IMG/VR virus record: IMGVR_UViG_638341086_000010
Reading direction: 5' to 3' (one strand)
Length of the DNA: 39,725 nucleotides
From: a virus
Lineage: Duplodnaviria > Heunggongvirae > Uroviricota > Caudoviricetes
The notes beneath the pieces were generated by a model. That model searched no databases. It saw only the letters and a list, made by a program, of their open reading frames with translations, and had not been told where the DNA came from. A program made the position numbers and the translations under genes. This document shows positions 32,446-36,720 of this stretch, in pieces (within the stretch, counting starts at the first letter, position 1; every line of letters starts with the position of its first letter).

Positions 32446-32985
32446 TCATATCGCCCCCAGCATGGTAGTAACCATCGCCATCAATGGACCAGCCAGATCT
32501 GGGTCCACACGAAACATCGACACAATACCTTCACTAATTTCCTTCAGTTTCTGGTGGCGTGGTGCGTTGAGAATGACAGCCTGTTTTGCCTCACTGAGTT
32601 CCTTTTCCATTTCAGCCAACCTAGCCATGAAGCTATCCTGCTCAACCAGGTAACCGCGATATTCCAGCGGTAGTACCGCCAGAATTGCCGGGGTCAGTTC
32701 ACGCACGTTATTTCGGTATTTTTCAGAATCGAATTTGTTATCGAGGAAGCGGAACAGCTTCTGGCGTGCACGGCTGACATCATCAGGGAAATCGATGGTG
32801 CCGCCGCCCTGCTCCCGATACTCATTCACAATGAGTGTGGCAACGACATCCTGATTATCTACAGCCGACCAGGCGCGGACGGCATCACGGATTTTTTCGT
32901 GGCCTGGCACCTGTTTTGTTTGAGAACGATTTATCACCGCAGTCGGGCTAAATCCGCTAGTCTGTTGGTATGTAAGTGGTTGCAT
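32446..32985 (-). CDS. YdaT-like (Rac prophage CII-position) regulatory protein, 179 aa
   Basis: Sits in the cII position between the cro-like gene and O; motifs (…EYREQGGG… …LTPAILAVLPLEYR…) resemble Rac YdaT as recalled; AAGGAG RBS. Confidence 0.7.
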   Translation of the reverse strand: MQPLTYQQTSGFSPTAVINRSQTKQVPGHEKIRDAVRAWSAVDNQDVVATLIVNEYREQGGGTIDFPDDVSRARQKLFRFLDNKFDSEKYRNNVRELTPAILAVLPLEYRGYLVEQDSFMARLAEMEKELSEAKQAVILNAPRHQKLKEISEGIVSMFRVDPDLAGPLMAMVTTMLGAI

Positions 32986-33053
32986 AATTGCTCCTTTAGT
33001 TTGAATTGACTGTTAAGTTGATTGCTTATTGTTAAAGAGCGTGAAATGGAAAT

Positions 33054-33284
33054 TTAAGCTGCGTTCTTTTCGGTGTGTGGAAACAACTTCGGAAGATCCG
33101 GGCGAATCTGGTATGCCTTCACTACTCCACCAGTAGCCGTAACAATGCTGCCGACATGTTCAGGGGATACCTTTGCTTTGTTGTGAAGCCACTTATAGAC
33201 GGCCTGCTGTGAAACTTCGCAAGCAGCGCCCAGTTTCTTTTGTGAACCAACGATATTGATCGCTGTTTTGATAGCTGGGTTCAT
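33054..33284 (-). CDS. Cro/YdaS-like HTH repressor, 76 aa
   Basis: Small HTH protein (…KKLGAACEVSQQAVYKWL…) divergent from cI across an operator region; GGAGG RBS. Confidence 0.8.
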   Translation of the reverse strand: MNPAIKTAINIVGSQKKLGAACEVSQQAVYKWLHNKAKVSPEHVGSIVTATGGVVKAYQIRPDLPKLFPHTEKNAA

Positions 33285-33318
33285 AACAACCTCCGTGGTT
33301 AATTTGAATCAAGATTAA

Positions 33319-33379
33319 AACCATGGTTGTTTTTAGTCAACAACCATTTTCGTTTGATGAAATAAAACCTTGGTTGTAC
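33319..33379. promoter_or_regulatory. Right operator region (OR-like): repeated AACCATGGTTG / CAACCAT / AACCTTGGTTG dyad motifs between the divergent cro-like and cI genes
   Basis: Three related palindromic motifs within the 104-bp divergent intergenic region. Individual promoter hexamers were not assigned. Confidence 0.55.
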
Positions 33380-33388
33380 ATTTGGACT

Positions 33389-34078
33389 ATGAAAACAACA
33401 CTCTCAGAAAGACTTAAAGAAGCCAGATTAGCGCGAGGCCTTACACAAAAGGCGCTTGGGGATTTGGTCGGGGTTAGCCAGGCTGCTATTCAGAAAATCG
33501 AAACAGGGAAAGCTAATCAAACAACTAAAATCGTGGAGATCGCGAACGCTTTGGGTGTGCGCGCAGAATGGTTATCTTCTGGCGTTGGAAATATGTCAGA
33601 CAGTACAGTGCAACCAATACAATCAACTGTCAGCCATTCCAAATACTTCAAGATTGACGTTCTTGATATAGAAGTCAGTGCTGGGCCGGGAGTCATCAAC
33701 CGTGAGTTTGTAGAAGTTCTACGCTCGGTTGAGTACTCGTTTGACGATGCTCGTCACATGTTCGATGGTAGGAAGGCGGAAAATATCCGCATCATTAACG
33801 TGCGTGGTGACAGCATGTCAGGAACGATCGAACCAGGTGATCTGCTGTTCGTTGATATCACAGTTAAATCTTTCGACGGTGATGGTATCTATGCGTTTCT
33901 GTACGACGACACAGCCCATGTAAAGCGCCTGCAAATGATGAAGGATAAGCTGCTGGTCATCTCTGATAACAAAAGCTACTCACCGTGGGACCCGATCGAG
34001 AAAGACGAGATGAACCGGGTGTTCATCTTCGGTAAGGTTATTGGGAGCATGCCGCAGACATATAGGAAGCATGGGTAG
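33389..34078 (+). CDS. cI: CI-type prophage repressor (N-terminal HTH plus C-terminal S24 LexA-like autopeptidase), about 229 aa
   Basis: HTH region (…LTQKALGDLVGVSQAAIQKIETG…) and S24 peptidase motifs (…GDSMSGTIEPGDLLFVD… …KRL…); ATG at 33389 chosen because the ORF-track start at 33323 lies inside the operator region. Confidence 0.85.
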   Translation: MKTTLSERLKEARLARGLTQKALGDLVGVSQAAIQKIETGKANQTTKIVEIANALGVRAEWLSSGVGNMSDSTVQPIQSTVSHSKYFKIDVLDIEVSAGPGVINREFVEVLRSVEYSFDDARHMFDGRKAENIRIINVRGDSMSGTIEPGDLLFVDITVKSFDGDGIYAFLYDDTAHVKRLQMMKDKLLVISDNKSYSPWDPIEKDEMNRVFIFGKVIGSMPQTYRKHG

Positions 34079-34199
34079 TACCAATTAAAAATTATCAACT
34101 GGGCATTGTGCTCATTCAGTAAAGAACTAATTCCTATCTTTGCTCTAGGTAGTAATATTAAGCCACCGCAATAATATCTTTACCTAACGGCGTAAGAAT

Positions 34200-34229
34200 C
34201 CCGGTCACCGTGCCGGGTTTTCTTTTGCC
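34200..34229 (+). terminator. Rho-independent terminator downstream of cI
   Basis: CCCGG-TCACCGTG-CCGGG followed by TTTTCTTTT on the plus strand. Confidence 0.6.
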
Positions 34230-34361
34230 CTCCCCTCATCACACACACCGTTAAAAAAACCACCATAACCTCGCTTCAGTTATCGCTATGCGATTCAAGT
34301 CACAAAATAAATCCATCCTAAATACAACCAGTTATATCTAAAGCAACCAATAAAACAACTT

Positions 34362-34396
34362 TTGTTGTTGACGATAAAACAACTATAGTTTTAAAT
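34362..34396 (+). promoter_or_regulatory. Candidate pL promoter with flanking operator-like dyad (AACAAC-N4-GTTGTT)
   Basis: TTGACG followed 17 nt later by TTAAAT; adjacent inverted repeat AACAACTTTTGTTGTT. Assignment is from sequence pattern and position only. Confidence 0.35.
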
Positions 34397-34589
34397 AAGT
34401 TCATCGCAACAACACAACGATACGGCAACTACCTGATTCACCGTTGCGATGACCGCTTAGATCCGCAGTTTGAATTTCAGCAGGCTTCGGGGAGTGCGAG
34501 GGGTGAAACGGACGCGTGAACGTCGGTGTGACCAGCTGAAATTAACTCAACATTTCATACCTTAGTCGCTTCAACGAGGCGGCTTAGTT

Positions 34590-34880
34590 ATGACAACCAG
34601 CGGCCATCCACCGCCTGAATACGCGCAGAAGTCTCTATATGTTCAGCAGCCCAGCTTACGGGCAGGAGTTTTTATGGTTCATCAACATTATGGAACGCAG
34701 ACCGTTAATCGAGGTGCGGTCATGCCAGGAATGCTGGTCAAACACAAAGATGGTACCTGGACTGCATCAGCTAATTTACGCGGACGGCTTTATCTGCATC
34801 GCGGCATCGAGCGCACTTATACCCGTGATTTGCTCGTGGAAGTTTTTCTCGACGGACGCGGTAACGGCCTGAATCACTAA
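34590..34880 (+). CDS. Hypothetical first protein of the early-left operon (96 aa as called; an internal start would give about 68 aa); possibly Kil/KilR-like
   Basis: First ORF after the pL leader, in the position where lambda has kil/cIII and Rac has kilR. Not arginine-rich, so not an N-type antiterminator. Function is a guess. Confidence 0.45.
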
Positions 34881-34955
34881 TCCCCTTTCCTGTTTTCCTA
34901 ATCAGCCTGGCATTTCGCGGGCGATATTTTCACAGCCATTTTCAGGAGGTCAGCC

Positions 34956-35252
34956 ATGAACGCTTATTACATTCAGGATCGTCTTGAGGCTCAGAGCTGG
35001 GCGCGTCACTACCAGCAGATCGCCCGTGAAGAGAAAGAGGCAGAACTGGCAGACGACATGGAAAAAGGCCTGCCCCAGCACCTGTTTGAATCGCTATGCA
35101 TCGATCATTTGCAACGCCACGGGGCCAGCAAAAAAGCCATTACCCGTGCGTTTGATGACGATGTTGAGTTTCAGGAGCGCATGGCAGAACACATCCAGTA
35201 CATGGTTGAAACCATTGCTCACCACCAGGTTGATATTGATTCAGAGGTATAA
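34956..35252 (+). CDS. gam: Gam (RecBCD inhibitor), short GamS form, 98 aa
   Basis: Translation [48 protein letters not shown]... matches lambda GamS as recalled; AGGAGG RBS. Confidence 0.93.
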
Positions 35253-35257
35253 AACGG

Positions 35258-36043
35258 ATGAGTACAGCACTCGCAACGCTGGCAGGGAAGCTGGCTGAAC
35301 GTGTCGGCATGGATTCTGTCGACCCACAGGAACTGATCACCACTCTTCGCCAGACGGCATTTAAAGGTGATGCCAGCGATGCGCAGTTCATCGCATTGTT
35401 GATCGTCGCCAACCAGTACGGCCTTAATCCGTGGACGAAAGAAATTTACGCCTTCCCTGATAAGCAGAACGGCATCGTTCCGGTGGTGGGCGTTGATGGC
35501 TGGTCCCGCATCATCAATGAAAACCAGCAGTTTGATGGCATGGACTTTGAGCAGGACAATGAATCCTGTACATGCCGGATTTACCGCAAGGACCGTAATC
35601 ATCCGATCTGCGTTACCGAATGGATGGATGAATGCCGCCGCGAACCATTCAAAACTCGCGAAGGCAGAGAAATCACGGGGCCGTGGCAGTCGCATCCCAA
35701 ACGGATGTTACGGCATAAAGCCATGATTCAGTGTGCCCGTCTGGCCTTCGGATTTGCTGGTATCTATGACAAGGATGAAGCCGAGCGCATTGTCGAAAAT
35801 ACTGCATACACTGCAGAACGTCAGCCAGAACGCGACATCACTCCGGTTAACGATGAAACCATGCAGGAGATTAACACTCTGCTGATCGCCCTGGATAAAA
35901 CATGGGATGACGACTTATTGCCGCTCTGTTCCCAGATATTTCGCCGCGACATTCGCGCATCGTCAGAACTGACACAGGCCGAAGCAGTGAAAGCTCTTGG
36001 ATTCCTGAAACAGAAAGCCACTGAGCAGAAGGTGGCAGCATGA
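35258..36043 (+). CDS. bet: Bet (Red-beta single-strand annealing recombinase), 261 aa
   Basis: 261 aa, the same length as lambda Bet, N-terminus [41 protein letters not shown].... Confidence 0.95.
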
Positions 36044-36720
36044 CACCGGACATTATCCTGCAGCGTACCGGGATCGACGTGAGAGCTGTCGAACAGGGGG
36101 ATGATGCATGGCACAAATTACGGCTCGGCGTCATCACCGCTTCAGAAGTTCACAACGTGATAGCAAAGCCCCGCTCAGGAAAAAAGTGGCCTGACATGAA
36201 AATGTCCTACTTCCACACCCTGCTGGCTGAGGTTTGCACCGGTGTGGCTCCGGAAGTTAATGCTAAGGCGCTGGCCTGGGGAAAACAGTACGAGAACGAC
36301 GCCAGAACCCTGTTTGAATTCACTTCCGGCGTGAATGTTACTGAATCCCCGATCATCTATCGCGACGAAAGTATGCGCACCGCCTGCTCTCCCGATGGTT
36401 TATGCAGTGACGGCAACGGCCTTGAACTGAAATGCCCGTTTACCTCCCGGGATTTCATGAAGTTCCGGCTCGGTGGTTTCGAGGCCATAAAATCGGCTTA
36501 CATGGCCCAGGTGCAGTACAGCATGTGGGTGACGCGAAAAGATGCCTGGTACTTTGCCAACTATGACCCGCGTATGAAGCGTGAAGGCCTGCATTATGTC
36601 GTGATTGAGCGGAATGAAAAGTACATGGCGAATTTTGACGAGATGGTGCCGGAGTTCATCGAAAAAATGGACGTGGCACTGGCTGAAATTGGTTTTGTAT
36701 TTGGGGAGCAATGGCGATGA
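36040..36720 (+). CDS. exo: Exo (Red-alpha 5-prime to 3-prime exonuclease), 226 aa
   Basis: 226 aa, the same length as lambda Exo, N-terminus [43 protein letters not shown]...; ATGA overlap with bet. Confidence 0.95.

Follow-up and report, generated by a model that had tools for sequence, protein, structure and literature searches.

The window, that is, the whole stretch of DNA that was analysed (39,725 nt; IMG/VR virus record IMGVR_UViG_638341086_000010), matches a DLP12-like lambdoid prophage at tRNA-Arg of E. coli O39:NM F8704-2 with 99.3-99.96% identity. The F8704-2 prophage has cro, O, P, ren and QuuD, together with a YdaT-domain gene at the place of cII; its annotation includes no N gene. 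The features from cI to exo described here lie on the plus strand. A gene encoding a cI-like S24/HTH repressor (33389..34078; Pfam Peptidase_S24 and HTH_3, RefSeq CDS coordinates) is followed by an intrinsic terminator that ends the cI transcript (about 34200..34227, from a terminator scan). Downstream of it, two copies of the motif AACAAC-N4-GTTGTT are present, a perfect one at 34354-34369 and another at 34378-34393, and four further copies lie in the cro/cI intergenic region (33285-33378). Since clusters of this motif were found at these two sites only, the copies are assigned to the oL and oR operators. The promoter pL overlaps oL and consists of a -35 box TTGACG (34368-34373) and, 17 nt later, a -10 box TTAAAT (34391-34396), the same geometry as in the other immunity type. 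It was not flagged by the consensus promoter scan because its -10 box is without A at position 2.

The start of the pL transcript was located by comparison with relatives of a different immunity. Four loci (L015, L017, L018 and L019) have a different promoter and operator set, with -35 TTGATA and -10 TATTAT; exactly 7 nt past the -10 box, at position 34404, similarity to the window sets in at about 97% identity. This indicates that the mosaic joint coincides with the transcription start and that 34404..34673, about 270 nt, is the transcribed pL leader. A mosaic joint at the transcription start is likewise found at HK022 putL.

The reading frame under study is an ATG-started ORF of 96 codons (34590..34880), and 75 nt separate it from gam (34956..35252; Pfam Gam, E=2e-64), followed by bet (RecT family, E=3e-33) and exo in a recombination module that extends over 34956..36720 in agreement with RefSeq. 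The earlier note had described it as the first ORF after the pL leader, just upstream of gam, and the operators, pL and gam confirm this: the ORF contains the first CDS after the pL leader, and its position in the operon is established. A second in-frame ATG at 34674 gives a protein of exactly 68 aa (MVHQHYGT...GNGLNH; 34674..34880), which is the true CDS inside the longer ORF, as indicated by PHROG 294, BLASTP, RefSeq and dN/dS.

Several other features of the region were noted. The gene in the cII position (32446-32985, minus strand) encodes a YdaT-toxin-domain protein and not a lambda-type CII, and is labelled 'cII' in some phage records. The interval between cI and pL (34079-34350) holds the cI terminator alone in the window, and the same interval in relatives carries variable cargo such as GevT/GevA, a HipA-like toxin pair and other ORFs (L002 1648-3076; L016 1-1471; L015 160-1576; L017 138-1492). 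A segment of 1.3 kb (25056-26365) matches an IS3-family element of the F8704-2 prophage in the opposite relative orientation.

Profile searches and alignments place the gene in the KilR family. [quoted passage not shown] In BLASTP, the identity to E. coli K-12 Rac KilR was 36% across 61 residues (E=9e-13) and that to phi80 Kil was 41%. NCBIfam NF008465 'FtsZ inhibitor protein', the model of Rac KilR, aligned to residues 1-68 of the short form (E=2e-17) with a score of 61.9 to 63.1 bits, which is below its curated cutoff of 92 bits; the protein is therefore a homologue of the narrow Rac-type subfamily that lies outside it. An older copy of Pfam, predating the KilR model PF27398, gave no match for the ORF. 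PF27398, which carries the name 'KilR' in a second annotation source, is precomputed on all 120 listed homologues, that is, on at least 120 of the 133 returned by a database search. The family is narrow: among 1.8 billion cluster representatives searched with a profile, no more than 79 clusters reached E<=0.001. Intact homologues mostly have 67-70 residues, and their hosts belong to Escherichia, Klebsiella, Enterobacter, Citrobacter, Salmonella and Shimwellia. A beta-core signature (H5, Y/F6, G7, R13, V16, P18, L59 and G63) is kept across the family, Rac KilR included.

The homology search against the Kil and KilR families that the earlier note had proposed thus matched the KilR family, and its placement of a Kil/KilR-type gene in the kil slot is borne out by these comparisons. 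The pairing 'Kil/KilR' stood in part: homology to Rac KilR and phi80 Kil was found, and lambda Kil fell away, as it gave no BLASTP alignment to the 68-aa protein at E<=100 and is assigned to other PHROGs (3924/2461). Membership of the lambda Kil family was rejected on these two grounds. An N-type antiterminator, which the note had also excluded, was rejected as well, as the ORF has no Pfam match and no arginine-rich N-terminus, and N is missing from the annotation of the near-identical prophage. The description of the gene as unknown did not hold, for it is already named in RefSeq as 'phage encoded cell division inhibitor protein' (WP_000233576.1) and is very common.

Lambda Kil is a ZipA-dependent FtsZ inhibitor of 47 aa. 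The lambda kil gene occupies the same slot, immediately upstream of gam, and is unrelated in sequence. From the stop codon of kilR into gam (34874-34960), a stretch of 87 nt matches lambda and Stx-type phages with lambda-type kil at 97.7% identity. Two unrelated kil families thus occupy one cassette position. The role of lambda Kil is presumably analogous to that of the protein in the window; its mechanism is reported to be distinct from that of KilR (PMC12482147). A mosaic junction lies right at the kilR stop codon. In phage D2 (L019 1968-2260), the leader, Shine-Dalgarno sequence and ATG are joined to a truncated ORF resembling lambda cIII (MRKLRDGWK...), followed by a lambda-type kil, and the D2 record labels this leader-ORF fusion 'prophage Kil protein'.

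The closest characterised counterpart, Rac KilR (YdaD) of E. coli K-12, shares PHROG 294 and PF27398 with the present protein, and the two have aligned N-termini and lengths of 73 and 68 aa, respectively. Each of the two genes is part of a lambdoid prophage's early-left operon and follows a long leader. The gene order differs, being ydaG-ydaF-(sieB)-kilS-kilR-ydaE-racC-recE-recT in Rac and pL-leader-kilR-gam-bet-exo here, and no similarity was found between the Rac kilS/kilR leader and the leader in the window. The phi80 Kil (PHI80_42) shares the C-terminal LDGxGNxLxH tail with the protein in the window. In phi80, kil is separated from pL by N, by tL1A (a terminator) and by one or two small ORFs, whereas in the window kilR comes first and there is no N.

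An AF2 model of the protein, built from a 36-sequence alignment, has six strands and a poorly ordered C-terminal tail, with a mean pLDDT of 81 and low confidence in three of the five models. In a structure search it resembled SH3/KOW-like barrels; the matches were generic SH3-like barrels, and no solved KilR-like structure was found among them. Rac KilR has been described from AF3 as a beta-rich core with unstructured termini (PMC12482147), and the predicted six-stranded barrel with its tail would agree with that description, again with three of the five AF2 models at low confidence. A beta-rich core and a flexible C-terminal tail are predicted for both proteins. The last 12 residues of Rac KilR are essential for toxicity, and the length of its tail tunes the balance between division and elongation defects (PMC12482147). 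The tail, which is the active region of Rac KilR, has 9 residues here as against 12 in Rac KilR and differs in sequence. The residues G61, G63, G65 and L66 are invariant or nearly so within the present subfamily, which suggests that the tail is functional here too.

Rac KilR inhibits FtsZ and also MreB, thus having more than one target, and its toxicity is accompanied by filamentation or rounding, is suppressed by FtsZ overproduction and depends on the tail (PMC12482147). From homology at 36-41% identity we infer the biochemical target and the phenotype of the 68-aa protein, and 34674..34880 quite probably encodes a 68-residue KilR-family protein that is the first to be translated from pL and is expected to inhibit cell division. 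When repression is lifted, pL (about 34368-34396) would fire, the structured leader of 270 nt would be transcribed first, and translation would begin with KilR, at a strong Shine-Dalgarno site, and go on to Gam, Bet and Exo. By homology, KilR would form a small beta-barrel whose C-terminal tail is flexible and conserved, and would block host division by disturbing FtsZ (the Z-ring), and possibly MreB, as Rac KilR does. The expected outcome would be transient filamentation on induction during the time in which Gam, Bet and Exo act.

It is rather unlikely that the protein belongs to the KilR family by descent and has taken on another target or role, for instance by acting mainly on MreB or cell elongation or on a further host protein, or by serving in defence or in interactions between phages. 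An identity of only 36% to Rac KilR, the different tail and the score below the subfamily cutoff would fit such a change, as would the report of multiple targets for Rac KilR itself (PMC12482147). The beta-core signature is kept family-wide, Rac KilR included, and the same operon slot is occupied, both of which argue against such a change.

The start site of kilR was established at 34674. A Shine-Dalgarno sequence AGGAG (34664..34668), read from the sequence and kept in E. coli-type contexts, precedes this ATG with a spacer of 5 nt. Met1 of the 68-aa form aligns with Met1 of Rac KilR in BLASTP, distant homologues are mostly 67-68 aa long and begin at the equivalent methionine, and in a 100% identical locus the RefSeq CDS of 68 aa has coordinates equal to 34674..34880 (WP_000233576.1). 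The earlier suspicion that an internal start would give a protein of roughly 68 aa was therefore correct, the alignment with Rac KilR and the RefSeq form both pointing to it. The upstream in-frame extension of 28 codons (84 nt; 34590..34673) is most likely untranslated leader.

A 96-aa protein starting at 34590, in which KilR would carry an N-terminal extension of 28 residues beginning MTTSGHPPP, is improbable as the main product. Of 43 distinct E. coli-type contexts, 38 have the longer frame open and in phase, and long versions are annotated in several phage records. However, five E. coli-type contexts, with 82-86 nt between the two ATGs, and locus L028, with 89 nt, break the long frame (the spacings observed in such natural variants being 82, 83, 85, 86 or 89 nt), and the intact 68-codon ORF is kept in every one of them. 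The ATG at 34590 is paired in the first hairpin of the leader and is without a well-spaced Shine-Dalgarno sequence. Elsewhere the same ATG precedes unrelated genes or short ORFs that are not conserved (49 different peptides in 97 contexts), and the first residue of Rac KilR and of phi80 Kil corresponds to the internal methionine. The 34590 ATG is thus a conserved triplet in a leader RNA hairpin and not the start of kilR, and the 96-codon reading frame arises because this ATG sits in a conserved structured leader RNA. As most E. coli-type contexts keep the ORF from 34590 open and in frame, a minor long isoform may be made in addition to the 68-aa protein.

The coding status of the 68-codon frame was established by comparison with 39 other distinct intact homologous CDSs, in which the variable columns numbered 26, 19 and 59 at the first, second and third codon positions, respectively. 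For diverged pairs with estimable dS, dN/dS was 0.04-0.10 in the kilR frame, a level of substitution that points to strong purifying selection. The alternative raised earlier, that the ORF is a non-coding leader, accordingly holds for the first 84 nt of the 96-codon ORF only, and 34674..34880 is conserved and coding. That the whole locus is non-coding, a reading which can appeal to the 5' third of the 96-codon ORF being leader RNA, or that the true gene is the overlapping +2-frame ORF 34639..34872, annotated as a hypothetical protein in phage PhiR34_1, is scarcely credible and is already refuted, as the +2 frame contains stops in all diverged homologues examined, the substitutions are located at the third codon positions of the KilR frame, and the +2-frame ORF has no PHROG match and a sub-threshold, chance-level Pfam match (PHD_P300, E=0.075).

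Of 5426 complete E. coli genomes, 1985 contained the 861-nt segment around the gene at a coverage of 80% or more. In public phage records the gene is annotated as 68, 96, 128 or 139 aa or in a wrong frame, with RefSeq and one other record using 68 aa; this inconsistency is attributed to the conservation of the leader ATG. Examples of divergent annotation are L003 3540-3773, L002 3377-3763, L018 1749-2168 and L016 1896-2186, of which one is in the +2 frame and the others are 128, 139 and 96 aa. Altered copies of kilR were also observed, with the start ATG changed to ATT in L082 and with +2 frameshifts or truncations in P0109, P0119, L088, L031 and L137. These mutated copies fit occasional inactivation of a toxic prophage gene, or sequencing errors.

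The 3' part of the leader, 34555-34673, is a portable structured RNA without an Rfam family. Its first hairpin (34555..34593) has a core stem formed by 34564-34572 and 34576-34584 around an AAC loop, which is supported by covariation, and a predicted outer helix in which CAUA (34556-34559) pairs with UAUG (34589-34592) and sequesters the AUG at 34590. The second hairpin (34599..34615), (A/G)GCGG-CCAUCCA-CCGCC, has a single match in the window and is nearly invariant in the set of contexts anchored on the other motif. That motif, the conserved box GCGCAGAAGTCT (34623..34634), follows a variable-length insert and is present in nearly all contexts. The third hairpin (34649..34663), GCCC-AGCUUAC-GGGC, is a predicted fold that abuts the Shine-Dalgarno sequence, and a small hairpin of different sequence takes its position in other phages. 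The order of the parts is constant: CATACCT, often preceded by an intrinsic terminator, then hairpin 1, the spacer GUUAUGACAACC, hairpin 2, the variable insert, the box GCGCAGAAGUCU..., hairpin 3 with the Shine-Dalgarno sequence, and the ATG.

The structure of hairpins 1 and 2 was examined in an alignment of 20 distinct sequences, three of which were padded with N in the loop to keep register. Hairpin 1 was found with many different stem sequences, and six of its nine core pairs were changed on both sides. Standard pairs occupied 97.9% of the cells over both helices and 97.2% in hairpin 1. When the partner strand was slid by 1-3 columns, pairing fell to 36-60%, and no column shuffle matched the observed covariation score. 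Frequent G.U pairs point to the plus-strand RNA as the structured species. With these results the leader structure is established. The fold of the 3' leader element had z=-2.05, and that of the whole leader (z=-0.29) was not unusual. The 5' half of the leader (34404-34552) is about 97% conserved from the predicted +1 across immunity types, all available copies being at least 96% identical and thus too alike for covariation.

The element is shared more widely and is better conserved than the gene that follows it. Between genera, the DNA identity over 34553-34655 was 78-86%, as against 68-73% for the kilR CDS. At least 120 IMG/VR viral contigs contain the exact 29-nt core GTTATGACAACCNGCGGCCATCCACCGCC (34587-34615), HK639 and phi80 have versions of it that carry one or two changes, and the window differs by one base from the 29-nt core of other phages. 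In blastn, the element consensus derived from other phages was 78-82% identical in phi80 and 86% in HK225. The kil homologues of the phi80, HK639 and HK225 type lie downstream of the same leader element as here, and the tL1 region of phi80 is homologous to 34556-34673 of the window, with the same architecture of hairpin 1, spacer and hairpin 2. The first gene after the element varies, being kilR here and elsewhere unrelated ORFs that begin MSNKTGG, MVNQQQI, MNHDEFDD, MQKFIVIQ and others. No second, nutR-like copy of the element was found in the window. No Rfam family was matched at E<=1 in 33000-36000 or in the phi80, HK639 and Klebsiella loci, a result of little weight as HK022 put is likewise absent from Rfam.

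In phi80 the element is flanked by the annotated intrinsic terminator tL1A, which comes just after N, and the rho-dependent terminator tL1B; in an older phi80 record the tL1 signal covers the whole stretch. In HK639, part of the element was annotated 'terminator' by the depositors. The copy in the window has no abutting intrinsic terminator and no T-run after hairpin 2. Published work attributes the silencing of kilR in the Rac prophage to Rho and NusG (PMC12482147). By analogy with this silencing and with the terminator annotation in phi80 and HK639, the element could plausibly serve for termination, attenuation or processing before the toxic kil gene is reached.

An HK022-type put site in the leader was suggested by eye, and the box GCGCAGAAGTCT resembles the 3' flank of HK022 putL, CATTAGCGAGAAGGCTT. 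This candidate was rejected by both nhmmer and a covariance model. The nhmmer search detected put in 20 of the related loci, including HK639 and the Klebsiella loci, and as putL and putR in HK022 itself, and detected none in the window. The covariance model, built from 11 put RNAs, gave no match in 34300-34700; its best score in the window was a chance-level 14.5 bits at 25354-25422, inside the IS3 copy. In Klebsiella and other prophages, homologues of HK022 put with compensatory changes in stem I were observed a few hundred nucleotides upstream of the leader element (L009 3669-3742, L008 3669-3742, HK639 (L141) 1336-1408 and about 17 IMG/VR loci).

Since stalling at polyproline is an established means of regulation, a leader peptide MTT(G/S)GHPPP acting in this way was considered; it was judged unlikely, given the 49 peptides in 97 contexts. 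Among the 83 distinct upstream contexts of the box-anchored set, one variant frameshifts the leader ORF, and another is without any AUG and nevertheless has a longer hairpin 1. Both variants in the 3' arm of hairpin 2 are C-to-U changes that keep G.U pairing and destroy the PPP motif. Several insert variants preserve the frame ending in ...EVLY and the stop, which counts for a leader peptide. A function of the element at the RNA level is favoured over a leader peptide by these sequence comparisons, because the peptide diverges, frameshifted and AUG-less variants occur, and the C-to-U changes keep pairing.

As a tentative proposal, which we regard as possible and still doubtful, the element would represent an undescribed class of structured cis-acting RNA that gates the toxic kil gene and the recombination genes. 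Such a class may be common to phi80, HK639, HK225 and DLP12-like prophages of Escherichia, Klebsiella, Enterobacter, Citrobacter and Salmonella, and it may work as a Rho-loading, processing or translation-control signal that is read only past the first terminator. In N-less, put-less phages such as the present one, the whole leader (34404-34673), which is conserved across immunity types from the transcription start onwards, may also carry a new RNA-based antitermination or attenuation signal.

For the gene, the result is an ordinary one and mainly fixes the start codon and the family, which is of the KilR type and not of the lambda Kil type. [quoted passage not shown] The structured leader RNA is a modest lead on how the early-left operon is controlled in N-less lambdoid prophages.
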